DNA of 64,000 nt, taken from contig NZ_JAQNDL010000005.1 of assembly GCF_028368995.1 (NCBI RefSeq), forward strand, positions 352,001 through 416,000, in the 5' to 3' direction. The position numbers and the translations under genes were made by a program. Shown one piece after another: positions 2,134-58,165 of this stretch (positions are counted from its first letter, which is position 1; each line of letters starts with the position of its first letter). Under the pieces are notes generated by a model. It saw nothing but the letters and a program-made list of their open reading frames with translations. It did no database searches and was not told the DNA's origin. The DNA comes from Nannocystis bainbridge. Lineage in GTDB: Bacteria > Myxococcota_A > Polyangia > Nannocystales > Nannocystaceae.

Positions 2134-2360
2134 CCCGGTCTTATCGCACGTCCCCGTCGACACCGGCATCCGTGCCCCCCTCACCCCGGTCGACATGCCC
2201 CCCCTCGCCCCCTCTGCGCAAATCCGGCCACTGGCACGCGGCATCATCGACGACACTCTTTTCGGCCTTCACGGCAGGCTGGTCCAGGAGCGCGAATATT
2301 GCTACTTGATCGACCTGGGACGCCGCGCGACGGCTCCAGCCCTCGGACGACGAGACACCC

Positions 2361-5300
2361 ATGAGCAAGCGCCAGGAGCCGCCCGAGCAAGCGTGGGGTC
2401 TCTACGAGACCCTGATCACCGAGGCCGTCGCCGCCAACGTCCGCGACCTCTCCCCTCGTCGCTCCGCGCGGGTCGAGCGGCTCCGCCCAGCCGACGCCGC
2501 CGACCGCCTCGCTTTGCATCTCGGCCGGATCGTCAACCGCGCGCTCGCGGCGTTGCCCGACGAGGAGCGGGTGCCTCGCGGCGTTCAGTTGGCGCGGCAG
2601 TTGATCGCGCAGATCGCCTCCGAGCTCGCCCTCGACCTCGCCCCCGACCTCCCGCGCGAGCCCGGCGAGGTCCTGCGGGCGCTGCTGGGCCGCCTGCCGG
2701 ACGGCAGCGCCGAGCTCCTGAGCGAGCCGATGATCCCGCTGCTCGACACCACGCTCCTCACCAACGCCCCGGGGGAGCCGCGGCTCGGTCACCAGCTCCA
2801 CGCCGAGATCCACTCCTCCGATCGCATCGATCTGCTGATGGCATTCATTCGTCGCAGCGGCCTCGCCCCGTTGCTGGACGCCCTTCGCCGCCACTGCGAG
2901 GCCGGCCGCACCCTGCGGCTCTTGACCACCACCTACACCGGCTCGACCGAGGCGCGCGCTCTCGATCAGCTGCGCGCGCTCGGGGCCGACATTCGCATCT
3001 CCTACGATACCGGGGCGTCGCGCCTGCACGCCAAGGCGTGGCTGTTTCACCGCCGCTCGGGCTTCTCGACGGCGTACATCGGCTCCTCGAACCTCACCCA
3101 CGCCGCGCAGGTCACCGGCCTCGAGTGGAACCTCCGCGTCTCGAGCGCGCGCAACCCCGACGTGATCGACCGCGTCGCCGCGGTCTTCGAGACCTACTGG
3201 AACAGCGACGACTTCATCGCCTACGACCCCGACCAATTCGCCGCCGAGAACGAGCGCGCGTCCGGCCCTGTCCTCCTGCTCAGCCCCATCGAACTGCGCC
3301 TGGAGCCCTTCCAGGAGCGCATGCTCGAGCAGATCGCCCTCGCCCGCGCGCAAGGTCATCACCGCAACCTCCTCGTCTCCGCCACCGGCACCGGCAAGAC
3401 CGTGATGGCCGCCGTCGACTACGCCCGGCTGCGCGCGAGCCTGCCGCGCGCCCGGCTCCTGTTCGTCGCTCACCGCGAGGAGCTCCTCGACCAGAGCCTC
3501 GCGACCTTCCGCCACGCCCTCCGTGAGCCCAGCTTCGGCGAGCTATGGGTCGGCGGCCAGCGGCCGCGGCGGTTCGAGCACGTGTTCGCCTCGATCCAGA
3601 GCCTGAACGCCGCCGGCCTCGCCGACCTCGACCCACGCCAGTTCGACGTCGTGATCGTCGATGAATTCCACCACGCCGCCGCGCCGTCGTACCGCGCCTT
3701 GCTCGATCACATCACCCCGCTCGAGCTGCTCGGATTGACCGCCACTCCCGAGCGCAGCGACGGCCTGCCGCTGCTCGGGTGGTTCGACGGCCGGATCGCC
3801 GCCGAGCTGCGCCTGTGGGACGCCATCGATCAGCGCCGCCTCGCCCCGTTCCTGTACTACGGCATTCACGACGGCCTCGACCTGCGCGACGTCGCCTGGC
3901 GTCGCGGTCGCGGCTACGACGTCGCGTCGCTCTCGAACCTGATCACCGCCAACGACGTCTGGGCCCGCCGGGTGCTCGCCCAGCTCGTCGCGCGCATCGA
4001 CGATCCTCGCGCGATGCGAGCGCTCGGCTTCTGCGTCAGCGTCGACCACGCCCGCTTCATGGCCCGCGTCTTCAACGAGGCCGGCATCGCCGCGCTCGCC
4101 GTGTGTGGCGACAGCCCGGACGGCGAGCGCCGCGCCGCGCTCGACGACCTCGCCGCGCGCCGCGTCAACATCGTCTTCTCGGTCGACCTCTTCAACGAGG
4201 GCATCGACGTGCCCGCCGTCGACACTCTCCTCCTGCTCCGACCGACGGACAGTCCGACGCTGTTCCTGCAGCAGCTCGGCCGCGGCCTCCGGCGCAGCCA
4301 CGGCAAGGAGGCCTGCACCGTCCTGGACTTCGTCGGCCGCCACCGCGCCGAGTTTCGCTTCGATCGCCGGTTCCAGGCCCTCCTCGGCGGCTCTCGCCGC
4401 GACCTCGTGCAGCAGATCGAGCACGGCTTCCCGTTCCTCCCGGCCGGCTGCCATCTCGAGCTCGACCCGATCGCCGCCGACATCGTGCTCGCCAACATCC
4501 GCCAGGCGACCCCCTCGCGACGCCCCGCCAAGATCGAAGCCCTGCGCCGGCTCGCCCGCGAGCACGGCGCGCCCACGCTCGATCAATACCTCACGGAGGA
4601 GGGCCTCGATCTCGCCGATGTCTACAGCGGAGACGGCTGGTCGGACCTGTGCGAGGCCGCCGGCCTGTCCCTTCGGCCAGCCGGGCCGCGCGAGGCCGAG
4701 CTCCGCCGCGCCTGCGCGCGCCTGCTCCACATCGACGACCCCGAGCGGATCGCGGCCTTCCGGGACCTCGTGGCCCGCGACGCACCTCCGCCGCTCACGG
4801 GCATGCCGGAGCGCCAGCGTCGGCTGCTGCGCATGCTCGTCGCGGCCGTGACCGAGCGCGCCCTCGACAAGACCACCACGCTCGCCCAGGCCAGCGCGCT
4901 GCTCTGGCAACACCCGCAAGTGTTGGCCGAGCTCCGCGAGCTGCTCGCCGTGCTCGCCGGCCGCATCGATCACCTCCACCACCCGCTCGCGGAGCGTCCT
5001 GATGTCCCGCTGCAGGTCCACGCTCGCTACACCCGCATCGAGATCCTCGCGGCGTTCGGCGTCGGCGCCGAGGCCAAGGTCGCGCCGTGGCAAACCGGCG
5101 TCTACTGGGCCAAGGAAGCGCGCGCCGACCTCCTGGCCTTCACGCTCGACAAGACCAGCGGCAACTTCTCACCGACCACCCGTTATCGCGACTACGCGAT
5201 CAGCCGCGAGCTTATCCACTGGGAGAGCCAGGCGATGACCCGCGCCACCAGCGAGACCGCCCGGCGTTACCAACAGCACGTCCAGCTCGGCACCGCGATC

Positions 5301-5462
5301 ATGTTGTTCGCCCGCGTTCGCAGCGACGAGCGGGCCTTCTGGTTCCTCGGGCCTGCCACTTACGTCCGCCACGAAAGAGAGGCGCCGATGGCCGTCACGT
5401 GGCGCCTGCATCACGCGCTCCCCGGCGACCTCTTCACCGCGTTCGCCGCCGCGGTCGCCTGA
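2361..5462 (+). CDS. PLD(HKD) nuclease + SF2 helicase + DUF3427 protein, SauUSI-like Type IV restriction enzyme candidate
   Basis: LHAKAW...IGSSNLT...EWN PLD motif; SATGTGKT Walker A; IVDEFHH; LGLTATPER; QQLGRGLR; C-terminal YRDYAISRELIHWESQ typical of DUF3427. Confidence 0.85.
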   Translation: MSKRQEPPEQAWGLYETLITEAVAANVRDLSPRRSARVERLRPADAADRLALHLGRIVNRALAALPDEERVPRGVQLARQLIAQIASELALDLAPDLPREPGEVLRALLGRLPDGSAELLSEPMIPLLDTTLLTNAPGEPRLGHQLHAEIHSSDRIDLLMAFIRRSGLAPLLDALRRHCEAGRTLRLLTTTYTGSTEARALDQLRALGADIRISYDTGASRLHAKAWLFHRRSGFSTAYIGSSNLTHAAQVTGLEWNLRVSSARNPDVIDRVAAVFETYWNSDDFIAYDPDQFAAENERASGPVLLLSPIELRLEPFQERMLEQIALARAQGHHRNLLVSATGTGKTVMAAVDYARLRASLPRARLLFVAHREELLDQSLATFRHALREPSFGELWVGGQRPRRFEHVFASIQSLNAAGLADLDPRQFDVVIVDEFHHAAAPSYRALLDHITPLELLGLTATPERSDGLPLLGWFDGRIAAELRLWDAIDQRRLAPFLYYGIHDGLDLRDVAWRRGRGYDVASLSNLITANDVWARRVLAQLVARIDDPRAMRALGFCVSVDHARFMARVFNEAGIAALAVCGDSPDGERRAALDDLAARRVNIVFSVDLFNEGIDVPAVDTLLLLRPTDSPTLFLQQLGRGLRRSHGKEACTVLDFVGRHRAEFRFDRRFQALLGGSRRDLVQQIEHGFPFLPAGCHLELDPIAADIVLANIRQATPSRRPAKIEALRRLAREHGAPTLDQYLTEEGLDLADVYSGDGWSDLCEAAGLSLRPAGPREAELRRACARLLHIDDPERIAAFRDLVARDAPPPLTGMPERQRRLLRMLVAAVTERALDKTTTLAQASALLWQHPQVLAELRELLAVLAGRIDHLHHPLAERPDVPLQVHARYTRIEILAAFGVGAEAKVAPWQTGVYWAKEARADLLAFTLDKTSGNFSPTTRYRDYAISRELIHWESQAMTRATSETARRYQQHVQLGTAIMLFARVRSDERAFWFLGPATYVRHEREAPMAVTWRLHHALPGDLFTAFAAAVA

Positions 5463-5853: not shown

Positions 5854-6798
5854 ATGGCCGCAAGCGACAGGTCGAACGAAGAGCTCACCGCCGAGGTGGA
5901 GGCGCTTCGGCGGCAGGTGGAGGAGCTCGAGGTCGACGCGCGGCGGTACCGGGCGATGGTCGACAATGTCGCCCTCAGCGTCCAGGTCTGCGACGCCGCC
6001 GGTCGCGTCGTCGAGGTCAACCGCGGCTTCGAGCGGCTGTGGCACCTCTCGCTCGCCGCCGTGCACGGCCACGTCATCCTCGAGGACAAGCAGCTCGAGC
6101 CGTCCGGCAGCCTGCGCGGCGTTCGCCACGCCTACGCCACCGGCGAGGCCACCCGGCTGCCCGCCATTCGCTACGATCCGCGGCACACCGAGGGCGTCTC
6201 CGACGGCTCTGCGGGGTGGGTCGCCTCCTCGATCTACCCCGTGCGCGACGACGCCGGCCGGCTCGTCGAGGCCGTGATCATGCACTACGAGATCGGCGAG
6301 CTGAAGCGCAGCGAGGAGGAGCTGCGGATCCAGAACGAGGCGCTCGAGGCCGCGGTCGCCGCCCGCACGGCCGAGCTGTCCGAGCACCTGCGCCTGCTCC
6401 ACGCCCAGCAGCAGTCGCTGCGCGAGCTCTCCACGCCGGTGATCCGCCTGTGGCCGGGGATCCTCGCGCTGCCGCTGATCGGGGTGATCGACGCCGCCCG
6501 GGCGACGCAGATCATGGAGAACCTGCTCTCGGCGATCGTCCATCACCGCGCCTCGCAGGTCCTGCTCGACGTCACCGGCGTGCCCGTCATCGACGCGGAG
6601 GTCGCCGCCCACCTGTGCCAGACCGTCGGCGCCGCGGCGCTGCTCGGCGTGCGCTGCATCCTCGTCGGCATCTCGCCGACCATGGCGCAGACCCTCGTCG
6701 AGCTCGACCTCGACCTCACGCGCCTGGCCACCGCCGCGAGCCTGGAAGACGGCCTCCGACAGGCGCTCGCGCAGCGCAGCCCGACCCCCCGCGGCTGA
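5854..6798 (+). CDS. PAS + STAS domain protein (RsbR-like)
   Basis: N-terminal PAS, then LRELSTPVIRLWPGILALPLIGVID...LLDVTGVPVID...LLGVRCILVGISP, the RsbR-type STAS signature. Confidence 0.9.
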   Translation: MAASDRSNEELTAEVEALRRQVEELEVDARRYRAMVDNVALSVQVCDAAGRVVEVNRGFERLWHLSLAAVHGHVILEDKQLEPSGSLRGVRHAYATGEATRLPAIRYDPRHTEGVSDGSAGWVASSIYPVRDDAGRLVEAVIMHYEIGELKRSEEELRIQNEALEAAVAARTAELSEHLRLLHAQQQSLRELSTPVIRLWPGILALPLIGVIDAARATQIMENLLSAIVHHRASQVLLDVTGVPVIDAEVAAHLCQTVGAAALLGVRCILVGISPTMAQTLVELDLDLTRLATAASLEDGLRQALAQRSPTPRG

Positions 6799-19019: not shown

Positions 19020-19709
19020 TCAGGCGTCGCGGGGCTCGCCGGACGGACGACGGCGCTCGTGGGCCCGGGCGAGCGCCGCGACGAGCAGCGAAGCGACGAG
19101 CAGCCCGGCGAGGATCGGCCACGCATCGGTCTGAAACCGCCCCGACGCGTCGAACATCTCGCTGCCGAGGTAGCTCACGAGCAGCAGCGGCGGCACATAG
19201 CCGATGAGCGAGCCCCAGAAATGAGTCCAGAACCCGACCCGCGACACGCCGAGGAAGGCGTGCAGCACCTGCGGCATCCAGAAGATCAGGCGCAGGACGA
19301 CGACGGTCCGGAACGCGGCGTGATCGAGCGATTCGTCGTACTTGCGGAGCCGGGCCGGAATGCGCTTCGAGACCCAATCCTTCGCCACGAAGCGCGCGAA
19401 CGAGAAGCCGACCACGCTCGCACCCATCGTCCCGATCATCGACAGCGCGAAGGCCGTCCGCCACGGCCAGATCAGCGGCGCCGCGACGATGAAGATCGTC
19501 CCCGGGACGCCGAACGGCTGCAGCACCGTGTACGCCAGGATGAACGCGAGGTAGCCCCACGCCCCCATCGCCACGAGCCCCTCGGCCAAGATCTTCGGCT
19601 CGGCGAGCCGCTCGAACACCCCGAAGCAATAGGCGCCCGCGAGCGTGAGGAGCACCAGGACGACGACGCTGAGCCTGGCGCCACGCCGCGCGCGAATCGT
19701 CGGGCTCAT
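19020..19709 (-). CDS. TVP38/TMEM64 (VTT/DedA-like) membrane protein
   Basis: GAWGYLAFILAY...PFGVPG...VVVLRL...LGVSRVGFWTHFWGSLIG. Confidence 0.85.
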   Translation of the reverse strand: MSPTIRARRGARLSVVVLVLLTLAGAYCFGVFERLAEPKILAEGLVAMGAWGYLAFILAYTVLQPFGVPGTIFIVAAPLIWPWRTAFALSMIGTMGASVVGFSFARFVAKDWVSKRIPARLRKYDESLDHAAFRTVVVLRLIFWMPQVLHAFLGVSRVGFWTHFWGSLIGYVPPLLLVSYLGSEMFDASGRFQTDAWPILAGLLVASLLVAALARAHERRRPSGEPRDA

Positions 19710-20368
19710 GCCGCGACCCTGTTGATGTCGGCCATCTCGAGGATGAACCGATCGGCCCGCCCCTCGACGACCCGAAGCATCGCACGGCCGAGGATCTCGG
19801 AGGTGGTGAACAGGCTCGGGAACCTCCGCGTGAGCCACGGGAGCAGCGGGAGCACCGGCTTCAACACCACGAGCCCGGCCTGATAGAGGCGCGTGCGGCT
19901 GCGGATGCCGGGACCGGGCCGGATGAAGCCGGGGCGCACCGCGCCGGCGTGGCGAAACGGCATCGACTTCAGCGCCCCCTCCACGCGCTGGCGAACCCTC
20001 GCCCACATCGAACGGCCGCCGGCGCCCGCTGCCGAGCAGTAGCAGAAGGAGAACTCCGGGTTCAGCCGGACCAGCGCGCGCGCCCACAGCAGCGTCAGCT
20101 CCTCGGTCACTCTGGCGTAGGCCGCCTCGTCGAGGCCCACGGAGCTGACGCCGACGGCCCAGATGCAGGCGTCGTAACCGACGAGCTGCTCTTCGACGGC
20201 GCCGATGTCGAAGAGATCGGGCAGCAGGAGCTCGCGCAGCTTCGGGTGCTCGACGCCGCACGTACGCCGCCCGATGCTGAACACCGCCTCGACCTCGGGG
20301 GCCGCGAGCGCTTCGCGCAGCGCGCCTGCCCCGACCATGCCGTTCGCGCCGAAAATCACGAGTCTCAT
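19706..20368 (-). CDS. atypical SDR / NAD-binding epimerase-like protein
   Basis: MRLVIFGANGMVG Rossmann motif; YDACIWAVGVSS; VRPGFI. Confidence 0.85.
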   Translation of the reverse strand: MRLVIFGANGMVGAGALREALAAPEVEAVFSIGRRTCGVEHPKLRELLLPDLFDIGAVEEQLVGYDACIWAVGVSSVGLDEAAYARVTEELTLLWARALVRLNPEFSFCYCSAAGAGGRSMWARVRQRVEGALKSMPFRHAGAVRPGFIRPGPGIRSRTRLYQAGLVVLKPVLPLLPWLTRRFPSLFTTSEILGRAMLRVVEGRADRFILEMADINRVAA

Positions 20369-20482
20369 CCCATGCACCTCTTCATTCCGTGGATCCGCAC
20401 GATCATCCGCGCTGGCATGATTGTGCCGTCCGAGCTCAGCGAGCGAGCGCCTCGCACAGCAGCCGAGCCGCATCCTGGTCGT

Positions 20483-21049
20483 TCACGGTCGGCGCCCCTT
20501 CGAAATCGCTGGTCTTACGAATCGCTCGGCGAGGACCTGGAGCCGCCGTTCGAGCACCGCGCTCGTCGGCATATCGGCGAGCAGACCGTCGAGCGCGAGC
20601 AGGAAGACCTCGGCCTGCTCCTCGTCCCCCAGGATGGTCGACACGCAATCCAGCGCGACCCTGTGGTGCTCCGCGTCGGTCGCGGGGTCCAGTCGCTCGC
20701 AGACTTCGAGGAACTCGCTCCCCATCGGCGTCCCGACCATGTCGGACCACGGCTCCAGCACCATCACCCTGCACACCGCGAGCAAGCGCTCGTATCGGCT
20801 GCCTCGCGCGCCCGTCGCCTGCTTCGCCGCGGGGTGCAGCGAGACCAGCCAGTCGACGAACACGGCCCTGTAGATGTCTTCCTTGTTTTTGAAGATCCGG
20901 TAGAGCAGCGTGCGCGAGAGGTTCGCCCGCTTGGCGATGTCCTCGAGCGAGGTCTTGGCGAAGCCGAAGTTGAGGAAGCACCACCGCGCGGCGAGCAGGA
21001 CCCTGGCGCGGCGCGCAGCCGCCTCGTCCTCGTTCATGGTCGCGCTCAC
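20483..21049 (-). CDS. TetR-family regulator
   Basis: FLNFGFAKTSLEDIAKRANLSRTLLYRIFKNKEDI HTH. Confidence 0.92.
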   Translation of the reverse strand: MSATMNEDEAAARRARVLLAARWCFLNFGFAKTSLEDIAKRANLSRTLLYRIFKNKEDIYRAVFVDWLVSLHPAAKQATGARGSRYERLLAVCRVMVLEPWSDMVGTPMGSEFLEVCERLDPATDAEHHRVALDCVSTILGDEEQAEVFLLALDGLLADMPTSAVLERRLQVLAERFVRPAISKGRRP

Positions 21050-21058
21050 GCGAACACT

Positions 21059-21084
21059 TTGACAATCGGAGCAATATTTGTCAA
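21059..21084. promoter_or_regulatory. probable TetR autoregulatory operator / promoter
   Basis: TTGACAA-N12-TTGTCAA immediately upstream of the tetR start. Confidence 0.65.
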
Positions 21085-21184
21085 CTCGTCACCGAGCGAG
21101 AGCCGCCCGACCCGGGCACCGCGCCTCTGGGCGGCGATTTCGCGCCCGCGCAGCGATTCGCAGCACCGCGCGAACGATGAGCCT

Positions 21185-25256: not shown

Positions 25257-26450
25257 TTATCGATAAATGCTGGTCGTAGGGTTATACGCCCGCCAGTCGA
25301 ACCAATAGTCCCAAAGGACAGGCACGGCCGGCATACACACCTTCGAGCTAGCGTGCGGCCCCTCGACCGCGCAGCCGCGGAAATCCCACAGGCTCCCGCT
25401 CTCGGCGTCGCGCAGGTGCTCCACGTCAGCCGGCGCCAGCAGCAGCGCCTTGCCATCCACACGCCGATCGAACACCCGCAGCATCCGCCCGCCGCCCGAC
25501 CACAGCACGATCGGCACCTCGCCCAGCTCGTCGAGGATCACCGGCTCGCTCGCCAGCCGGCTCGCCTCGTACGCCCTCGCCTGCCCGCCGACCGCGATCC
25601 CAGCCACAAGTGCCCGCGGCGGCAGCGCCGAATCGCTGGTGTCCACCACCGTCGGCAGCTTGTCGATCCCCGGCTCCCAGTCGCGCTCGTAGCTGTCCGT
25701 ACGGCCAGGTTCTCCCAGCAGCACCTGCCCCGCCGGGAACTCCGTCGTAAACCGCGCGATCGTCAGCTCATTACTATGAACCTGATCGAGCTTCGCCCCG
25801 CGCATCGACCCGGCGATGCACTCGCCGCTGACCTGCTGCCAGAAGCTCCCCGTCTCCTCGTCGCGCATGAGGAAGTTCTGGTTGTGGATCCCCGCGAGGT
25901 GGAAAGTCAGCGTCTTGCCCTGGATTGTCCGCGCCCACACTAGACCAGTGTGGCAGAGCGTTCAATATGTCACGACGAGCGCCGTATCCCCCACGTAATC
26001 ATTCAACACATGGTGATACGCCATCACCTCGACCGGGTACCCCCGCGCCTGCTCCCCGACGCGCACTGCCATCACCATCGCATCGTCCGGCAGCCCCGAT
26101 TCGCCGGCCGCCGCGAACCTCGGCGCCGGCATCGGCGCGAACATTTTTTCAAACACGTTGATCCGCGACAGCGCCCCCGCGCCGATCGTCAGCACCAGCA
26201 TCACCACCGCCCCGGCGCGCCGCCACCAGCCGCCGGGCCACGCGCGCGCCACCGCGACGCCCGCCAACAAACCTGCCCCGAGGAGCAACCACGGCCCGAA
26301 GCGCAGCACCCACAGCGCCACTGCCAGCTCGGTCGGGCCTTGCGGGCGGAACGGGCGCATCACCCACAGCGGGGTGACGAGCGTCGCCACGGCGACGAGC
26401 AGCGCGCCGAGGCCGAGCAGGACGAACGGACGACGGGTCGAGGAGGTCAT
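25257..26450 (-). CDS. membrane-anchored DUF3179 (seleno)protein with an in-frame UGA read as Sec (VTY-U-TLC)
   Basis: ORFs 25962..26450 and 25257..25940 are in one frame, separated only by TGA at 25964-25962; this position is the first Cys of the DUF3179 VTYCxxC motif; YPVEVMAYHHVLND and MRDEETGSFWQQVSG fit the family. Confidence 0.85.
25935..25953 (-). promoter_or_regulatory. putative bacterial SECIS hairpin
   Basis: mRNA CCACACU-GGUCU-AGUGUGG; loop begins 16 nt after the UGA and resembles the fdhF SECIS loop. Confidence 0.7.
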
Positions 26451-26615: not shown

Positions 26616-27263
26616 CTACGGAGGCGGCGGGCGAATGGGGGAGCTTTCGTCGAGGACGAGGGCGCGCGAGAATGCGTAACCGACGACGCTCCAGCCCCAC
26701 ACGCTGCTGTAGAAGAAGCCGACGCCAGCCGCGAGGAGGCCAAGCGGCGTGAGTGCCATGGCGGCGCCGGCGATGGCCCAGGCGCGAAGGTATGAGGAGC
26801 CGCCGTCCAGCGCTCGCCGCAACGCCTTATCCGGTCGGTACAAATAGGAGAGATCGTTGAATGCTGCGTTGTAGGTCATCCCGCCGGGCAGCGCATAGAT
26901 CGCGATCAGGAAGCATGCGAGCGCGAGCGGGCCTGTCACCCAGATCAGGGCCGAGTACGCATGGCAGTGAAGGACCGCGGTCGCGCCCGCGAGGAGGATG
27001 GCGGGCGTGAGATAGACGGTGATCGCCGCGAAGGCGCGGAGCCCTCGGCGCAAGGTGTGACCCCAGGGCGCGAAGCCGCGGAAGTACGGCGGTTCGTCGT
27101 GATATACCCGGTAGACGACATCCAGACGGTGACCGAGATTGAGAATCCAGCCCAGCAGGGGGAGTAGAAGCAACGTACCCCCCAGCAGCACGTCACGCCG
27201 CCCCTCGGGGGTGCTGATGGGGAAAGCGAAGCACTCGCGGAGACTCGGGGCGGGGCGGCGCAT
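26616..27263 (-). CDS. DUF4013-like membrane protein
   Basis: CFAFP...LLGGTLLLLPLLGWILNLGH...; several TM helices; locally lower GC. Confidence 0.65.
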   Translation of the reverse strand: MRRPAPSLRECFAFPISTPEGRRDVLLGGTLLLLPLLGWILNLGHRLDVVYRVYHDEPPYFRGFAPWGHTLRRGLRAFAAITVYLTPAILLAGATAVLHCHAYSALIWVTGPLALACFLIAIYALPGGMTYNAAFNDLSYLYRPDKALRRALDGGSSYLRAWAIAGAAMALTPLGLLAAGVGFFYSSVWGWSVVGYAFSRALVLDESSPIRPPPP

Positions 27264-27582: not shown

Positions 27583-28167
27583 TCACCGCTTGCGATCCGG
27601 CGCCAGCGGGTCCTCCCCCCATTCGGGCTCGAACTGCCCGCCGAGCCCGTCCACCAGCCGATTGTAATAGTTGAAAAGCGCCGTGATCTGCACGATTTGG
27701 TGGATCGCCACGTCGTCGAACCCGTGCTCCCGCAGCCCCGCGATCTGCCGCTCACCGATCGCCTTGCTGTCCCGCGTCAACGCCACTGCCACGTCGATCA
27801 TCGCCCGGTCGGCCGGCGACAGCGCGGCGTGGTCCGGGTCGCGCTCGAGCGCGTCGGCGATCGCGTGGACATCTGGTTGTGCCTCGACCTCGGCCCGGAG
27901 GTCGTCGCTGTGCGCGCGCGTTCAATACACGCACTTGTTGGTGCGGGACACCGCGACCGCGATCATCTCGCGCTGGGCCCGTGACAGCGGCCCGGGGCCG
28001 AACATCAGTTCGCGGTACAGGTCGAGCGACGCCTGCAGGACGCGCGGCTGCACGCTCTGGATCCGCAGCACGTGGAAGATCTTGCCGGCGCGCGCCAGCG
28101 CGGCGCGGTAGATCCGCGCCAGGAGGCCGTCTGCGTGGTCGGGGTCGACGATACGGATCCATGCCAT
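27583..28167 (-). CDS. AhpD/carboxymuconolactone-decarboxylase-like peroxidase-related selenoprotein (CxxU)
   Basis: LSRAQREMIAVAVSRTNKCVY-TGA-TRAH continues in frame into 27583..27801 (LREHGFDD...FNYYNRLVDGLG); family motif is NxCxYCxxxH. Confidence 0.88.
27885..27904 (-). promoter_or_regulatory. putative bacterial SECIS hairpin
   Basis: mRNA CGACCUC-CGGGCC-GAGGUCG starting 18 nt after the UGA. Confidence 0.55.
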
Positions 28168-31974: not shown

Positions 31975-33279
31975 TCAGCCAGCGCTCGCCGCGTCGACCA
32001 CGGGCGGGAAGCCGTTGATCTGGCGCCACACCTCGAAGCCGAGGCGGACCCGCTCGAGCAGCACCCAGCCGTTCGCGCGCACGCCCTGGCGCAGCCACCG
32101 GTGGTCGGGCCACGGCAGGTCGTCGGGATCGGGCAGCACCACCACGCGATAGCGACCGCTCTCGTCGGCCAGCGCGTCGACGAACTCGACGACGCCGCCG
32201 AACGTGCCGATCGCCACCGACGGCCAGCCGATGAACTGCACCGCCGGCCAGCCCTCGAACTGCAGGCGGACGTGCCGACCCGCGGAGATGAGCGGGCCGT
32301 CGCTGCCCTCCATCCACAGCTCGACCGCGCTCGTGTCCATGTCGGGCACGAAGGACGCGATCACGTCGCCGGCCGCGACCATGTCGGTCCCGTGGCGGCC
32401 GATGAGCTTCAGGATCGTCCCGTCGCGCGGCGCCACGATCTTCATCCGCTGCTGCCGCGCCATCCGGACCTCGAGCTGGATCAGGTCGGCCTCGGCCGTG
32501 GCGAGCGTGCTCTCGGCCGACGCCACCGAGCTGCGCGCCTCCTCGATGATCGCCCGCGCGCTGGTGTCGACCGCGTCGGCGGTGGCGTCGAGCGCCCCGA
32601 TCTCCCGCAGCGACGCCCGCAGCGAGGCCCGCGACGAGTCGAGGTTGGCCTTGCGCGTGGCCGCGTCGAGCCGCGCCAGCTCGAGCTCGCGGGTCGACGC
32701 CAGCCCCTCGTCGAACATCGCCTGCGTGCGCGCGAGGTTGAGGCGGGCCGTCTCGGAGGCCGACACCGCGGCATCGACCGCTCGCTGGGCCGCTTCCTGG
32801 CGGTCGCGACCGATGCGCGCGCGCAGCCCCGCCGACGACGACTGCGCCGTGCGGCTCAGCTCGAGCGTCGTGATCTTGGCCCGGTTGATGTCGACCGAGC
32901 TCTGGGCCGCCATCCGGCGCGCCTCGATCGCCATCCGCTCGCGCTCCAGCCGCGCCAGGATCTCCGGGTCGTTGTCGCTGATGTCGGCGATCGGCTCGCC
33001 AGCCAGCACGTGGGTGCCCTCCTCGACGTGCCAGGTCTGCAGGCGCCCGTCGATCGGCGCCTCGATCGCGGTCTGGCGGTCGAGCGGCGCGTAGGCGATC
33101 ACGCGCCCGTCGCCGGGCACGCTCTGCTGCCACGGCACCAGCGCCAGCGCGGACCCGAGCATCAGCAGCGCCAGCATCATCAGCCGGACCGCCAGGTCGG
33201 TGCCTCGCGGCTGCCGCACCGACAGCAGGCTGGGCCGCGACACGTCGTACGCCGGGACGATGTGCATGGGTAATTCCAT
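31975..33279 (-). CDS. HlyD-family membrane fusion protein
   Basis: VPWQQSVPGDGRV, IEAPIDGRL, long coiled coil, IVAPRDG, VRLQFEGWPAVQF, WRQINGFPP. Confidence 0.9.
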   Translation of the reverse strand: MELPMHIVPAYDVSRPSLLSVRQPRGTDLAVRLMMLALLMLGSALALVPWQQSVPGDGRVIAYAPLDRQTAIEAPIDGRLQTWHVEEGTHVLAGEPIADISDNDPEILARLERERMAIEARRMAAQSSVDINRAKITTLELSRTAQSSSAGLRARIGRDRQEAAQRAVDAAVSASETARLNLARTQAMFDEGLASTRELELARLDAATRKANLDSSRASLRASLREIGALDATADAVDTSARAIIEEARSSVASAESTLATAEADLIQLEVRMARQQRMKIVAPRDGTILKLIGRHGTDMVAAGDVIASFVPDMDTSAVELWMEGSDGPLISAGRHVRLQFEGWPAVQFIGWPSVAIGTFGGVVEFVDALADESGRYRVVVLPDPDDLPWPDHRWLRQGVRANGWVLLERVRLGFEVWRQINGFPPVVDAASAG

Positions 33280-33693
33280 GGGAGCCTCGTTCAGCGGTCC
33301 GCCGTCTCGCGCAGCGTCGTCAGCCCGGCGCTCGCGGCGCGCAGCAGAGGCGCGCGACCCGAACGCGAGGGCATGGGCGCGGAGATGGGAGACAGGTCGG
33401 AGTTCGTGGACATGGGCAGAGGGCTTCGCGGGTCGCTGCCTCGAATCGAGGCCGTGCGAAGCCAGGCCACGGGCCGCGGCGGCTCGGGCAGACAGAGACT
33501 TGGTGCTTCCGCGCGACTTCGGCGTTACTGCCGCTTCGATCCTGCGAGGACCCAAGGCGCGGCCTGACAGCGCATCGACCAGACGGTCCGACACGTGCCG
33601 ACGAATCATGAGTGAGGTGCGCGATTCACATGCTGCGGCGAACCAGCGACGAATCGTCGTTGGACGCGGCAGATCGGCTGCGCAGAGCGCAGC

Positions 33694-34041
33694 TCAGCAC
33701 CGACCGACCGGAGGCCCGCGCGCCTTGAGCGTCGCCCGTATGCCCATTCGCGGCGACGCGCTCGGCGCTGGCAACGGCCAGGGCGAGAACGCGTCGACCA
33801 TGGCCATCGCGACCTCGTCGGTCCGCGGCGGCAAGACCGGAGCGGTCTCGTTCCTGCGGGCCGAGTGATCGGGCGACTCTTGCTGGCGCGAGACGACCGG
33901 GACATCGTGCTGCCCGACCGAGCAGACCTCGTCGTCCGCGCCCTCGAGGATTCGCATGCGGGCGCCGGTGGTGAAAAGCAACGCGGTGGACACTGCGATC
34001 AGCAGCGCCAGCACGAGTCTCCAACCGGTCATCACACGCAT
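33694..34041 (-). CDS. small secreted protein ending in ARGPP, candidate RAPP/RGPP ribosome-arrest leader peptide
   Basis: N-terminal signal/TM segment WRLVLALLIAVSTALLF, low-complexity linker, C-terminal LKARGPPVGRC. Confidence 0.55.
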   Translation of the reverse strand: MRVMTGWRLVLALLIAVSTALLFTTGARMRILEGADDEVCSVGQHDVPVVSRQQESPDHSARRNETAPVLPPRTDEVAMAMVDAFSPWPLPAPSASPRMGIRATLKARGPPVGRC

Positions 34042-34173
34042 GAAAGCTGATCGAGCCTATCACAGGACAGGCGAAGCTGCTCGCACGAGCAGGCGATGAT
34101 GCGTGAGAAATTCCCGGCCCGGGCGCCCCGGAGCCCGCGTTTACGCATTGCTGCGGCGACAGCTTGCGGCGCG

Positions 34174-35460: not shown

Positions 35461-35578
35461 TACTCATCCAGCGAGCTCCGGAGCGCGAGCGACCGGTCCC
35501 GCCGTGCCCGGCGCTGCCTGATCTCCGGCCGCGCCTGCCAGCGCCCCCTCGCCTGCCCGACCCGGCTACACTGCGGCC

Positions 35579-36058
35579 ATGCCCAAGCAGAGCGCCGGCA
35601 TCCTGCTGTTCCGCGGCCATGGCCCCGACCTCGAGGTCCTGCTCGTCCACCCTGGCGGTCCGCTGTGGGCCCGCAAGGACGACGGCGCGTGGACGATCCC
35701 CAAGGGTGAGTTCACCGCCGACGAAGAGCCGCTCGCGGCCGCCCGCCGCGAGTTCGCCGAGGAGACCGGCGTCGCGCTCACCGGCCCCTTCCACGCCCTC
35801 GCGCCGATCCGCCAGCGCGCCGGCAAGGTCGTGCACGCCTGGGCCTGCCGCGGCGACTGCGACCCCGCCGCGCTGCGCAGCAACACCTTCGAGATCGAGT
35901 GGCCGCCGCGCTCGGGCCGGCGGCAGAGCTTCCCCGAAGTCGACCGCGCCGCCTTCTTCTCGCTCGCCGCCGCCCGCACCAAGATGAACCCGGCCCAGGT
36001 CGACCTCCTCGATCAGCTGGCCCGCCTGCCGGTCGCGCTTGACCCTCACGTGACGTGA
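35579..36058 (+). CDS. NUDIX hydrolase
   Basis: SAGILLFR...VHPGGP...WTIPKGE...AARREFAEETG Nudix box, FPEVDRA. Confidence 0.93.
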   Translation: MPKQSAGILLFRGHGPDLEVLLVHPGGPLWARKDDGAWTIPKGEFTADEEPLAAARREFAEETGVALTGPFHALAPIRQRAGKVVHAWACRGDCDPAALRSNTFEIEWPPRSGRRQSFPEVDRAAFFSLAAARTKMNPAQVDLLDQLARLPVALDPHVT

Positions 36059-36069
36059 GGCCCTATCCC
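36039..36069 (+). promoter_or_regulatory. MerR/TipA-type promoter-operator
   Basis: TTGACC-N19-TATCCC with the palindrome CCTCACGT-G-ACGTGAGG (36044-36060) in the spacer, like the Streptomyces tipA promoter. Confidence 0.8.
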
Positions 36070-36094
36070 TGTCGGCGAGGCGCGAGGCAACGCC

Positions 36095-36859
36095 ATGGCA
36101 CTCACCGTCAAACAGGTCGCGAGCATCGCCGGGGTCAGCGTCCGCACGCTGCATCACTACGACGAGATCGGCCTGCTGCGCCCCTCGGGTCGCAGCAGCG
36201 CCGGTTACCGGCTCTACAGCGAGGCCGACCTGTCTCGCCTGCAGCAGGTGTTGTTCTTCCGGGCGCTCGAGTTTCCGTTGCAGGAGATCTGCCGGCTCAT
36301 GCGCGACCCGGAGTTCGACATCGGCGCGTCGCTGCGGATGCAGCGGCAGCTGCTGCGCGAGAAGGCCGTCCGGCTGCAGAGCCTGCTCGTGGCCGTCGAC
36401 GCCGCCCTCGCCCGCCTCGGAGACGAGCGACCCATGACGAATGACGAGATGAAGCAGATGTTCGATGGTTTCGACCCCTCGGTCCACGAAGCCGAGGCGC
36501 AGCAGCGCTGGGGCGAGACCGAGGCCTACCAGGAGTCCAAACGCCGCGCCGCGACCTACGGCAAGCGCGAGTGGGAGGCGATCAAGCTCGAGGCCGACGC
36601 CACCTTCGCGCGGCTCGCCGAGCTCATGAAGGCCGGCGTCGCCCCCGACGCCGCCGACGCGATGGACGCCGCCGAGGCCCACCGCCAGCACCTCGAGCGG
36701 TGGTTCTACCCCTGCTCGCCCGCGTTCCACCGCGGCCTCGGCCAGCTCTACGTCGACGACCCGCGGTTCACCGCCAACATCGACAAGACGAGCCCGGGCC
36801 TCGCCGCCTACGCCGCGGCGGCCATCACCGCCAACGCCGGGCGCGCGGGCTCGGCATGA
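36095..36859 (+). CDS. tipA: MerR-family regulator with TipAS antibiotic-recognition domain
   Basis: VSVRTLHHYDEIGLL...GYRLY HTH; EAQQRWGETEAYQES, WFYPCS, LYVDDPRF TipAS motifs. Confidence 0.9.
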   Translation: MALTVKQVASIAGVSVRTLHHYDEIGLLRPSGRSSAGYRLYSEADLSRLQQVLFFRALEFPLQEICRLMRDPEFDIGASLRMQRQLLREKAVRLQSLLVAVDAALARLGDERPMTNDEMKQMFDGFDPSVHEAEAQQRWGETEAYQESKRRAATYGKREWEAIKLEADATFARLAELMKAGVAPDAADAMDAAEAHRQHLERWFYPCSPAFHRGLGQLYVDDPRFTANIDKTSPGLAAYAAAAITANAGRAGSA

Positions 36860-55148: not shown

Positions 55149-55441
55149 CCGCGGGCCGGGGGCGTTCGCCCGGCTTCGTGCGATGATTGGCGGCAGTGGT
55201 TCTCGGCGAGTCGTCGCTCTCGCCCGTGCGCCGATTCTCAGGGATGGTTGGCCGCCTGACGATTCACGGGCCGTGCGCGTAAGCAGGCGCCCGGGCCCGT
55301 GCGACGATTCGCGGCGGTGGTTCGTCGCCGTTCGGCGCGCTGGCCGCCCGCGCGGGCAGGCGCCCCGGGCCCGTGATACCCTGCCCACCCGTGCCTCGCC
55401 CCGGCAAACGCTCCGAGCCGCCCGCGCCGGTGCCCGGCGAA

Positions 55442-58165
55442 ATGGCGCTGCGGGCCCTCCGCGAGCTCGTCGCGGGCTTCCCGGCCGACGCCGCGGCCAC
55501 GGAGCCCGACCTCCGGCCGCTGCGCCGCGCGCTGGTCCGGCGGGTGACGCGATGGATGTTTCGCCTGCACGCCGGGGCGCGCGGGCTCGAGTGGGGTGAT
55601 TCGCTGTGGCGCCTGTGCGCCGAGGCCGGGGATGCGCCGTCGCTCGCGCAGGCCCGCGCGCTCGCATGCGAGGACCTCGTGGACGGCCCGCAGCCGGACG
55701 CCGCGGCGGTGGGTCGGGCCCTGCAAGCCCTGCAAGCTGTCGACGATCCGCGAGCTTGGTACCGCGACCTCGACCTCGAGGCGCTCGGCGGGGTCCACGA
55801 GTCGCTGCTCGACTACCGCCTGCTGCGTCTGCGCGGGCCAGGGCTCGAGCTCGGCCCGGGGGACGTGGTGATCGATCTGGCGGAGATCCTGTCTCATGAG
55901 CCAGACGCGCGAATGGCCAGGGTCGCGGCCGCCGGTGGGTCGCCCGACGCCGCGCTGCAGCAGGCGCTGGTCTCGGCGCGCACGCCCGCGGAGGTCCTCG
56001 AGTCCCTGGCGCTGCGACCCCCGCGGCGAGCGCACCAGATCTTGCCGGCCGGGTCGCTGGTCGTGGCGCCAGGCGAGGATCGGCGGCGCGCCGGGGCTCA
56101 CTACACGCCGCGCGGGCTGGCCGACCCGATCGTGAACACCGCCTTGGGCCCGCTGCTGGTGGCCCTGGGCGAGCGGCCGACGCCGACGCAGCTGCTGGCG
56201 CTGAAGCTGTGCGATCCGGCGACCGGCTGCGGGGCGTTCCTGCTGGCGGCCTGCCGCCTGCTCGGCGACCGGCTCGAGCGCGCGTGCCACGATCATGGTG
56301 TCACGATCGCGGCCGGGGTCGACGCGACCGCGCTCGCGCGCCGCGAGGTCGCCCTGCATTGCCTGCACGGGGTCGACAAGGACCCCGACGCCGCCGAGCT
56401 GACGCGGCTCTCGCTGTGGCTGCTGACCGGCGCAAGCGGCTCTCCGGACGAATTCATGAGCGCGGCGGTGCGCTGCGGCGACGCGCTGGTCGGGCTCGAC
56501 CGGGCCCGTATCGCCGCGTTTTCATGGCACCCCGACGCGGACGAGCCAACGAGGGCGGAAGACCGCCCACATTCGCGCGAACGGCCGATCGGCGACGCGG
56601 CGGTCGCCGTGTTCTTCGCCCACGACAGCGACCGCCGCCGCGACGAGCAGCGCGAACGGCTGGCCCGCGCCACGGTGGAGCCGGCCCGCCGCGGCGACCC
56701 CGGGGCCCTCGCTGCCTTGACGCGCCTGGCGGCCGGGCTCGGCGACCTCGGGGTGCTGCCATTTCACTGGGAGCTCGAGTTCCCGACGGTGTTCGCCCGC
56801 GACGAGCCCGGGTTCGACGGCTTCATCGGCAACCCGCCCTTCTTTTGGGGCAACCGCATCGGCCGCGCGTTCGGCGATCGTTACCGCGATTGGCTGCTGC
56901 GCACCTGCCCGGGCGCGCACGGCAACAGCGACCTCGCGGCTTATTTTCTCCGGCGGTGCTTCGCCCTGCTGCGCCGGGGCGGCACGCTCGGGTTCGTCAC
57001 CACCAACTCGATCGCCGAGGCCGACACCCGCGCCACCGGCCTCGAGCCGCTGCTGCGCGCCGGCGGCGTCGTCTACGAGGCGGTCCGCAGCGCCGCCTGG
57101 GACGGCGGCGCCAGCGTGCGCGTCGCCCACGTGTTCGTGATCAAGGGCCCGTGGTCCGGGGTGCGTCGGCTCGACGGCGAGGCGGTGACCGCCATCGGCA
57201 GCGACCTGCGGCGGCCGCGAGCGGCGTGGACGGCCGTGCGCCTGCGCGAGCGCGCGGGGGAGAGCTTCAAGGGCGTCGATTTCGGCGGCACCGGCTTCCT
57301 GCTGACACCCGCCCAGCGCGAAGCGCTCGTCGGCGCGGCGCCGCACGAGGCGGCCTGCATCTGGCCGGTGATGAACGCCAGCACCTTCACCTCGTCGCCG
57401 CACGTGCGGCCGGCCGGCTTCATCATCAACTTCACCGGGCTGACGCTGGCGGAGGCGGAGCAGTTCCCGCGCTGCCTGGCGATCGTGCGCGAGCGGGTGC
57501 TGCCGCGCCGCGCGATCGACAAGCGCAAGGCCCGGCGCGAGCGCTGGTGGCTCTACAACGAGGCCTGCAGCGGGCTTTATCGGGCGATCGCCGGCAAGGC
57601 CGCGGTGCTCGCCTGCCCCGTGGTCGCCAAGTACGTCACCTTCGCCCTCGTCGACGCCCACGCGGTGTTCACCAACGCGCTCAACGTGTTCACGTTCGAC
57701 GACCACGCGTCCCTCGCGGTGTTGCAGTCCCGCGTGCACGAGCTGTGGGCCTTGACGCAAGGCTCGAGCCTGCGGGCCGACCCGCGCTACAACCCCTCCG
57801 ATTGCTTCGAGACGTTCCCGATGCCGCCCGAGTGGCGACATTCGCATTTTCTCGCCGATGCCGGGCGGCGCTACGACGAATGCCGGCGCCGGATGATGAT
57901 CGCCGGCGATATCGGTCTGACGCGCCTCTACAATCGCTTTCACGATCCAGCCGATCGCGCGGACGATATCGCCGAGCTGCGCGAGCTCCACGCGGCCCTC
58001 GATCGCGCGACCCTGACCGCCTACGGCTGGGACGACCTGGCGACGCGCGCGAGCGCGGAGTTCGCGGCCCGCGGCGACGGCACCCGCCTTGCGTGGCTGC
58101 CGGCGCTGGCCGACGCGCTGCTGGGCCGCCTCCTGACCCTGAATCAGCAGCGCGCCGGCGGGTGA
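55442..58165 (+). CDS. Type IIG/MmeI-like N6-adenine DNA methyltransferase with TRD; no recognisable nuclease domain
   Basis: LGGVHESLL, HYTP, CDPATGCGAFL, FHWELEFP, GNPPF, RYNPSDCFETFP, LTRLYNRFH, LDRATLTAYGW. Confidence 0.85.
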   Translation: MALRALRELVAGFPADAAATEPDLRPLRRALVRRVTRWMFRLHAGARGLEWGDSLWRLCAEAGDAPSLAQARALACEDLVDGPQPDAAAVGRALQALQAVDDPRAWYRDLDLEALGGVHESLLDYRLLRLRGPGLELGPGDVVIDLAEILSHEPDARMARVAAAGGSPDAALQQALVSARTPAEVLESLALRPPRRAHQILPAGSLVVAPGEDRRRAGAHYTPRGLADPIVNTALGPLLVALGERPTPTQLLALKLCDPATGCGAFLLAACRLLGDRLERACHDHGVTIAAGVDATALARREVALHCLHGVDKDPDAAELTRLSLWLLTGASGSPDEFMSAAVRCGDALVGLDRARIAAFSWHPDADEPTRAEDRPHSRERPIGDAAVAVFFAHDSDRRRDEQRERLARATVEPARRGDPGALAALTRLAAGLGDLGVLPFHWELEFPTVFARDEPGFDGFIGNPPFFWGNRIGRAFGDRYRDWLLRTCPGAHGNSDLAAYFLRRCFALLRRGGTLGFVTTNSIAEADTRATGLEPLLRAGGVVYEAVRSAAWDGGASVRVAHVFVIKGPWSGVRRLDGEAVTAIGSDLRRPRAAWTAVRLRERAGESFKGVDFGGTGFLLTPAQREALVGAAPHEAACIWPVMNASTFTSSPHVRPAGFIINFTGLTLAEAEQFPRCLAIVRERVLPRRAIDKRKARRERWWLYNEACSGLYRAIAGKAAVLACPVVAKYVTFALVDAHAVFTNALNVFTFDDHASLAVLQSRVHELWALTQGSSLRADPRYNPSDCFETFPMPPEWRHSHFLADAGRRYDECRRRMMIAGDIGLTRLYNRFHDPADRADDIAELRELHAALDRATLTAYGWDDLATRASAEFAARGDGTRLAWLPALADALLGRLLTLNQQRAGG

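Follow-up and report, generated by a model that had tools for sequence, protein, structure and literature searches.

Are two open reading frames (ORFs) of Nannocystis bainbridge that meet at a TGA codon separate genes, or are they one gene in which this codon encodes selenocysteine (Sec, U), and what might the protein then do? The locus lies in a stretch of 64,000 nucleotides (positions 352,001 to 416,000 of the forward strand of contig NZ_JAQNDL010000005.1, RefSeq assembly GCF_028368995.1). The whole stretch is called the window here, and coordinates count from its first letter. An original prediction, made from the letters alone, had joined the two ORFs into a membrane-anchored protein of the DUF3179 family with a UxxC motif, followed by a selenocysteine insertion sequence (SECIS) like that of fdhF. 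According to the present analysis the two ORFs are very probably one gene, and its in-frame UGA encodes selenocysteine in a membrane-anchored DUF3179 protein.

The reading frame across the TGA codon

With translation table 11 the locus yields two ORFs, 25962..26450 (162 residues) and 25257..25940 (227 residues), both on the minus strand and in the same frame. Read through with TGA taken as U, positions 25257..26450 of the minus strand form the single frame with UxxC that had been predicted: 397 codons and a TAA stop, with one internal TGA. This codon, at 25964..25962, encodes residue 163 in the context VVTY-U-TLCHTGLVW. The G+C content at third codon positions (GC3) is 0.87 and 0.85 for the halves on either side of the TGA, in a window of 71.5% G+C. 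These values are typical of real genes in both halves, so that the coding signature runs through the TGA. The Pfam profile DUF3179 (PF11376) matches residues 109-393 with its positions 9-292 of 292 (E 3.4e-60; 204.4 bits against a cutoff of 27). The match crosses the TGA, which speaks against two separate genes. The gene and the two residues of its motif are located as follows.

25257..26450, minus strand: probable complete selenoprotein coding sequence of the DUF3179 family (read-through translation, PF11376 match, GC3)
25962..25964, minus strand: UGA codon, probably selenocysteine U163, first residue of U-T-L-C (TGA/Cys alignment across loci)
25953..25955, minus strand: codon of Cys166, likely resolving partner of U163 (invariant in 88 of 88 aligned sequences)

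The deposited relatives reflect the same split. The GTG codon of Val171 (25938..25940, minus strand) sits inside the hairpin that follows the UGA, and gene callers begin the C-terminal fragment there. This accounts for the entries of 221-228 residues, starting 'MW...' or 'VW...', that dominate the closest database matches (62-85% identity). These nearest relatives are C-terminal fragments, and the full-length reading is absent from their entries. NCBI calls one of them 'DUF3179 domain-containing (seleno)protein [Nannocystis sp. ILAH1]'. No NCBIfam model matches the read-through protein, so this name does not stem from an NCBIfam model of that release. Full-length relatives of about 408-410 residues (40-46% identity) are from Acidobacteriota.

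A search of 185,579 species genomes gave 581 confirmed relatives; the locus counts given here use the best 80 of these 581. The motif is present in 79 of the 80 loci, and the aligned codon is TGA in 69 of them and TGC or TGT in ten. Within the 139 codons around the site no further stop was found in any of the 79 motif-bearing loci, and the residues flanking the UGA site are invariant among the relatives. One locus (L077) reads UTLCY, with Tyr for His, yet keeps its TGA. Each TGA locus belongs to a different species genome, and the set spans several phyla. Going by record titles, three Nannocystis records are among the TGA forms, together with many Bryobacterales, Terriglobia, Pyrinomonadaceae/Blastocatellia and Thermoanaerobaculum and one metagenome-assembled genome of Verrucomicrobiia. 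Nine of the ten Cys forms are titled Acidobacteriaceae or Tunturiibacter, Edaphobacter or Terracidiphilus, three genera presumably within Acidobacteriaceae, and the tenth (L034) is titled only 'bacterium'. The signature NNGNA is common to the Cys forms and would fit a single clade, while [NH]NQNF is found in 70 of 70 TGA forms. The TGA-form set (n = 70) comprises the 69 loci and the window; the Cys-form set has n = 10.

The nearest loci among the best 80 are from Nannocystis, with 79-86% identity for L001, L002 and L004 and 62% for L003. L004, the 80th locus (Nannocystis punicea FL3, NZ_CP114040.1, around 5900-6687), retains the gene only from HTGLVW onward, with unrelated sequence before it. 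This copy seems to be a truncated remnant that lacks both UxxC and membrane domain. The column of U163 holds Cys in 87 full-length homologues from the database, and the site reads VTYCTLCHTGLVW. Thus both expectations of the original prediction, Cys opposite the TGA in homologues and a TGA kept in close orthologues, were borne out. A UGA that stands opposite the first Cys of a conserved CxxC and is kept as TGA in distant bacteria leads to the reading as selenocysteine.

The hairpin after the UGA and the decoding of the codon

The bases after the UGA read ACG CUC UGC CAC ACU GGU CUA GUG UGG, in which C-CAC-ACU pairs with A-GUG-UGG around GGUCU. The hairpin CCACACU-GGUCU-AGUGUGG, 25953 to 25935, is thus present as originally described. 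It begins 8 nt past the UGA and is encoded by the codons of C-H-T-G-L-V-W. The first 40 nt from the UGA fold with -15.6 kcal/mol (z -2.03), and 6 of 200 shuffles were equally good.

25935..25953, minus strand: SECIS-like hairpin with a 7-bp stem (25953-25947 with 25941-25935) and the loop GGUCU (25946-25942) (98% pairing, loop conservation)
25935..25967, minus strand: block of frozen synonymous sites, codons of Tyr162 to Trp172 (codon entropy)

The AT-rich codons of the hairpin had been called unusual for this genome, and they are. Across 10,964 codons from 19 ORFs of the window with high GC3, ACT makes up 2.6% of Thr codons, GGT 5.9% of Gly codons and CTA 0.4% of Leu codons; TAT, next to the UGA, makes up 11% of Tyr codons. 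It had also been proposed that RNA structure constrains these codons, and the comparison of the two sets of loci agrees, codons 162-171 being frozen in the TGA forms only. Among the 70 TGA forms the codons are TAT (67/70), ACG (69/70), CAC (69/69), ACC (69/70), GGT (70/70), CTG (69/70) and GTG (70/70). Codon entropy within the block ranges from 0 to 0.9 bit in the TGA forms and from 0.5 to 2.4 bits in the Cys forms. Amino acids that are equally well conserved at other places in the 139 codons around the site are written with two to six codons, at about 1-2 bits in four- and six-fold families. The ten Cys forms encode His by CAT (7) or CAC (3), Thr by ACA (4), ACG (3) or ACC (3), Gly by GGG (6) or GGA (4), and Val by four codons; GGT occurs in none of them. 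The block from Tyr162 to Trp172 is likely the full extent of the constraint at the RNA level around the UGA.

The pairing follows the same division. The loop GGUCU is identical in all 70 TGA forms, the stem is paired in 98% of cells, and the five inner pairs are intact in 70 of 70. Two of the pairs involve a wobble position in each strand, and in the Cys forms these are disrupted in 5 and 6 of the ten sequences. Only the window departs from ACC...CUG: it has ACU...CUA, a compensatory change of the loop-closing pair from C-G to U-A. The change of His to Tyr in L077 turns a C-G of the stem into U-G, by which the pair is kept. Trp172 is replaced by Leu or Phe in seven loci at the cost of the two outer pairs, so that the core of the stem is 5 bp. 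Covariation is confined to a single pair with a double change, matched by 9 of 500 shuffles; these statistics are weak because the element hardly varies. The case for an RNA element rests on the loss of synonymous freedom specific to the TGA forms, which is the strong evidence.

Given what is established about Sec insertion in bacteria, the hairpin would be a SECIS, which would recruit SelB carrying Sec-tRNA(Sec) to a ribosome paused at the UGA. The original prediction had called the element 'fdhF-like', and this held in part. As in the SECIS of fdhF of Escherichia coli K-12, the element lies directly 3' of the UGA and within the coding frame, and its apex GGUCU consists of the same five bases in the same Gly-Leu frame. 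The spacing and the stem do not conform: GGUCU follows the UGA after 15 nt here and after 18 nt in fdhF, and the fdhF stem is interrupted by a bulged U, whereas the stem here is a perfect 7 bp without a bulge. The bulged U of fdhF-type SECIS elements matters for SelB binding. Another difference from fdhF is that GGUCU, which SelB would bind, here makes up a loop of five bases, with C-G (in the window U-A) as its closing pair.

The shorter spacing and the missing bulge count against the reading of the UGA as selenocysteine, and so do several further results. ARAGORN found no tRNA, hence no tRNA-Sec, in the 64-kb window, and none of selA, selB and selD was found among the 34 ORFs scanned there. 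A wider fold of 71 nt is no better than shuffles (z -0.56). Four of the seven stem pairs are invariant and by themselves say nothing on structure, so the evidence for the stem consists of conservation and one compensatory change. Moreover, the pairing is partly dictated by the peptide C-H-T-G-L-V-W, with 84% of cells paired even in the Cys forms. No part of the window reached a gathering threshold of Rfam, and near the hairpin only two chance-level matches appeared at E up to 10. Sec decoding gains indirect support from another gene interrupted by TGA, an AhpD-like member of a known selenoprotein family, in the window and in Nannocystis orthologues (see below).

Two other explanations of the codon have to be weighed. 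The TGA might mark no more than a nonsense mutation, the border of two genes or an error in sequencing, with no Sec inserted. The splitting of the gene by gene callers, the fragments among the nearest database proteins, the remnant in Nannocystis punicea and the lack of visible Sec machinery in the window would all be in keeping with this, but it is hardly credible in view of a TGA that 69 of the 79 loci with the motif have at this codon, with both flanks conserved and no other stops, of a coding signature and a Pfam domain that both continue across the TGA, and of the frozen synonymous sites after it. Alternatively, the UGA might be decoded without SelB-dependent insertion of Sec, through near-cognate read-through (as Trp or Cys) or another local recoding signal. 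The lack of Sec machinery among the window's genes suits this reading as well, and the string UAU UGA ACG C, common to the DUF3179 gene and the AhpD-like neighbour, could be a context signal. It is nevertheless very improbable: the apex GGUCU is that of the fdhF SECIS, the DUF3179 and AhpD-like families are both catalogued selenoprotein families, and a UGA opposite Cys in a redox-type motif is the classical signature of Sec.

Fold, family and possible function

The tables of selenoprotein families in two reviews (PMC9312934, PMC13188914) include DUF3179, with UxxC/T, and credit it to Zhang & Gladyshev 2007. This agrees with the original prediction, according to which Sec-containing members exist and their function is unknown. 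In the new-family table passages of Zhang & Gladyshev 2007 the name DUF3179 is absent. The passages of the full-text literature that name DUF3179 yielded no statement on fold, SECIS or distribution in Nannocystis or Acidobacteriota, and nothing was found there for 'Nannocystis' together with 'selenocysteine'. The window protein has the same Pfam domain and the same UxxC as the listed family and is a member without essential difference. It is thus of a selenoprotein kind already catalogued, a genuine member and ordinary as a discovery. What is new is a predicted Rieske-like tandem duplication with the UxxC in the first copy, some relatives fused to redoxins and an AhpD-like selenoprotein gene nearby.

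The AlphaFold2 model (88 sequences, mean pLDDT 89.6) consists of three N-terminal helices, residues 7-30, 39-70 and 75-95, followed by a beta-rich domain. The original prediction of about three N-terminal transmembrane helices is consistent with this model. R32, P33, F34 and Q37 are invariant in the subfamily (alignment of the 88 sequences). The domain is predicted to comprise two modules.

26166..26432, minus strand: N-terminal membrane domain, three predicted helices (residues 7-95) with a conserved RPFRPQ loop (AlphaFold2, alignment)
25701..26117, minus strand: module 1 of the DUF3179 domain (residues 112-250), predicted Rieske-like beta fold, bears the UxxC (AlphaFold2, Foldseek)
25260..25637, minus strand: module 2 (residues 272-397), diverged duplicate of module 1 without the UxxC loop (hhalign)

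The internal duplication was detected by hhalign between residues 116-262 and 272-397 (probability 98.9%, E 2.4e-17, 124 columns). The whole model has no global match in the PDB by Foldseek, only local matches to Rieske domains, and module 1 was therefore folded separately. Folded alone from 80 read-through translations, it reached a pLDDT of 93.5. Nearly all of its listed PDB matches are Rieske-fold proteins: NirD, Rieske ferredoxins, Rieske domains of oxygenases, AioB and a Rieske iron-sulfur protein. TM scores are 0.44-0.64 (3gce 0.50/0.64, 2qpz 0.47/0.60, 3c0d 0.45/0.57) and probabilities up to 1.00, with E-values of only 0.03-0.3. A search of the PDB by sequence profile gave one chance match (E 0.39), and a search of the ESM Atlas with a natural Cys homologue gave no usable match.

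The predicted fold of module 1 may be like that of Rieske ferredoxins, of the Rieske domains of ring-hydroxylating oxygenases and of NirD. As in NirD, the cluster ligands are missing: CxH...CxxH is absent from the sequence, and Pfam at E up to 10 gives DUF3179 only. The module differs from Rieske proteins in this respect, in its tandem duplication and in the UxxC of the first copy. In the model the fourth strand is followed by a loop that holds U163-x-x-C166, and going by sequence position this loop would sit roughly where Rieske proteins bear their first cluster-binding loop. The thioredoxin-fold thiol:disulfide oxidoreductases have in common with the protein only CxxC/UxxC and the variants derived from it; the fold predicted here is all-beta and Rieske-like.

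The profile is matched at E <= 0.001 by 11,432 clusters (50% identity), which makes this a large family, and the motif figures that follow refer to the best 150 representatives of these. A motif of the type [TS][YFW]CxxC is present in 114 of them. Of the 150, 22 start just past the Sec site (at their own residue 1-2) and three end just before it, a pattern that splitting of Sec forms would produce. The second Cys is followed by R in 41, H in 22, N in 17, G in 9 and others in the remainder, a tally that includes some WCxxC motifs of redoxins. Thirteen representatives without the motif were aligned; ten span the site, with variants that include SxxS, CxxS, SxxC and CxxT. Six of the 15 long relatives scanned among the 150 (P0132, P0206, P0210, P0234, P0241 and P0260) are fusions of an AhpC-TSA/Redoxin domain, TlpA-like and with WCxxC, to one or two DUF3179 domains. 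In others the partner is an fn3 or NHL domain, as in P0127 (1587 residues; five matched DUF3179 stretches and fn3 repeats) and P0270 (NHL propeller); such domains are typically extracytoplasmic. In an alignment of 92 diverse relatives H146 (95%), D151 (96%) and D197 (100%) are conserved, and W204 and Q206 are also within 95-100%.

The protein is most likely an extracytoplasmic selenol/thiol oxidoreductase, a proposal with about an even chance of being right. The most positive loop is that of residues 69-78; placed in the cytoplasm, it leaves the domain outside, so that the DUF3179 domain would face the periplasm. There U163 would act as the attacking selenolate of a selenol/thiol redox pair and form a selenenylsulfide with C166, and a periplasmic reductant with a thioredoxin fold, of the TlpA/ResA type, would recycle the pair. 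A redox pair with thioredoxin-fold partners is proposed on the basis of Sec at the N-terminal Cys of CxxC, the derived motifs CxxS, CxxT, SxxC and SxxS in relatives, the redoxin fusions and the extracytoplasmic context. In those relatives the DUF3179 domain is fused C-terminally to the redoxin domain, which suggests, by analogy, that its CxxC receives electrons from the latter. A thiol:disulfide oxidoreductase fused to the enzyme that it recycles is also the arrangement of PilB/Msr. The original prediction of a membrane-bound redox enzyme is plausible in this light, with indirect support, but it is the only main claim that did not hold as established.

Several findings stand against such a mechanism. 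The E-values of the Rieske-fold matches are high, as noted, and the topology is based on charge counting and on fusions in relatives. The window protein itself has no redoxin domain, unlike the fused relatives, and no thioredoxin-like gene is among the recurrent neighbours of the 80 loci. A conserved operon partner is likewise missing, the commonest neighbour clusters occurring in at most 12 of the 80 loci. Finally, H146, D151 and D197, conserved family-wide along with both Cys, suit a metal site as well as a catalytic one.

A metal site is in fact the more serious of two rival functions. U163 and C166 would be metal or cluster ligands together with H146, D151 or D197, and the protein would serve in periplasmic metal binding, metal trafficking or electron transfer. 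Such a role is rather unlikely. It draws on the fold matches, which are Rieske ferredoxins, NirD and Rieske domains, on the conservation of the three residues and on the position of the UxxC loop, which in the sequence would follow the strand preceding the first Rieske cluster-binding loop. The redoxin fusions fit it too; TlpA-type redoxins reduce the copper-binding cysteines of Sco and CoxB. The review tables cited above list other predicted UxxC selenoproteins in metal-handling families. On the other hand, the Rieske ligands and any Pfam match to a Rieske domain are absent, relatives with SxxS, CxxS, SxxC or CxxT would lose a ligand, and C360, C372 and H167 are not conserved in the 92 diverse relatives. 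A four-Cys metal site (U163, C166, C360, C372) as a feature of the family was rejected, since C360 and C372 are confined to the subfamily. Exchange of Sec and Cys at the N-terminal position of CxxC usually marks a catalytic redox cysteine, a rule that Fomenko and colleagues are said to have put forward in 2007.

The other rival takes C/U-x-x-C-H for a haem c attachment site, which would make the protein a membrane-anchored c-type cytochrome with its haem held through a selenoether in the Sec forms. The Cys forms do read CTLCH, the domain probably lies in the periplasm, the site of haem c attachment, and H146 or H147 could be the distal ligand. In Idiomarina genomes a DUF3179 protein was picked up by a scan for CXXCH (PMC9230427, Table 4), a listing that is a mechanical motif match. 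Haem c attachment was ruled out and is regarded as extremely unlikely, because the His of CXXCH is not conserved family-wide, either in the best 150 representatives or in the 92 relatives. It is confined to the subfamily; it is found in 14 of the 92 aligned relatives, R, N, G or others stand there elsewhere in the family, and the TGA form L077 has Tyr in its place. Further, the predicted fold is all-beta and Rieske-like, no cytochrome is among the Foldseek matches, and a structural selenoether gives no catalytic reason for Sec.

For the family as a whole, the extracytoplasmic oxidoreductase reading leads to a broader and more tentative proposal. DUF3179 may be an unrecognised class of extracytoplasmic CxxC/UxxC oxidoreductases on a duplicated, cluster-less scaffold of the Rieske type, in which Sec would attack and TlpA-like redoxins would donate electrons; this is somewhat less than an even bet. 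A bolder variant, in which Sec163 would ligate a metal in a remodelled Rieske site, is conceivable.

Neighbouring genes and significance

A second selenoprotein gene, likewise split, lies 1.1 kb upstream of the DUF3179 gene on the same strand.

27583..28167, minus strand: AhpD-like, peroxidase-related selenoprotein gene with C-V-Y-U-T, TGA at 27922..27924 (TIGR01926, E 2.2e-41)

The TGA stands at the second Cys of the AhpD-like CxxC, presumably the catalytic motif, and a hairpin GACCUC/GAGGUC begins 20 nt past it. Orthologues in Nannocystis keep both the TGA and the bases of the hairpin. As a CxxU member the gene belongs with the AhpD-like selenoproteins (TIGR01926; NF041238, 'alkylhydroperoxidase-related (seleno)protein'). 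These differ from DUF3179 proteins in fold and family and have no evident membrane segments. AhpD-like genes were found within 6 kb of the DUF3179 gene in 12 of the 80 loci, a count given without a chance baseline, and in five of these they are directly adjacent on the same strand. A TGA is present at the CxxU site in six of six neighbours checked, four of them acidobacterial; they include genes at L001 5321-5902, L073 5239-5793, L022 7301-7795, L063 7303-7797 and L051 7443-7913. In L001 the two selenoprotein genes are only about 100 bp apart. The DUF3179 protein may work with the adjacent AhpD-like selenoprotein in Nannocystis and in many Acidobacteriota, but such a functional pair is a lead only.

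Between the two genes of the window lies an ORF for a DUF4013 membrane protein (26616..27263, minus strand; E 1.5e-7). Relatives of this neighbour and of the S9 peptidase and Usp neighbours were found in none of the 80 loci. Three other pairs of ORFs in the window share a frame and are parted by TGA (19706-21088, 31975-34056 and 35522-36859); they were rejected as selenoproteins and are separate, ordinary genes. They encode a TetR protein and another gene product (19706..21088), an unknown and an HlyD-like protein (31975..34056), and NUDIX and MerR/TipA proteins (35522..36859). Possible defence genes of the window are a PLD-nuclease/helicase/DUF3427 protein (2310..5462, plus strand) and a restriction-modification fusion of the MmeI/Eco57I type (55283..58165, plus strand).

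By itself the selenoprotein assignment is a correction of annotation, for a gene that is routinely split in databases. The hairpin is a neat case of a probable SECIS written wholly in the codons of the motif that follows Sec, and the Cys forms within the family provide a natural control. The fold, the architecture of the SECIS and the redox partners are modest new leads. Members of the very large DUF3179 family are found widely in soil bacteria. Sec points to residue 163 as the reactive centre, and together the predicted Rieske-like tandem fold, the redoxin fusions and the CxxS, CxxT and SxxC variants amount to a concrete hypothesis open to laboratory testing.

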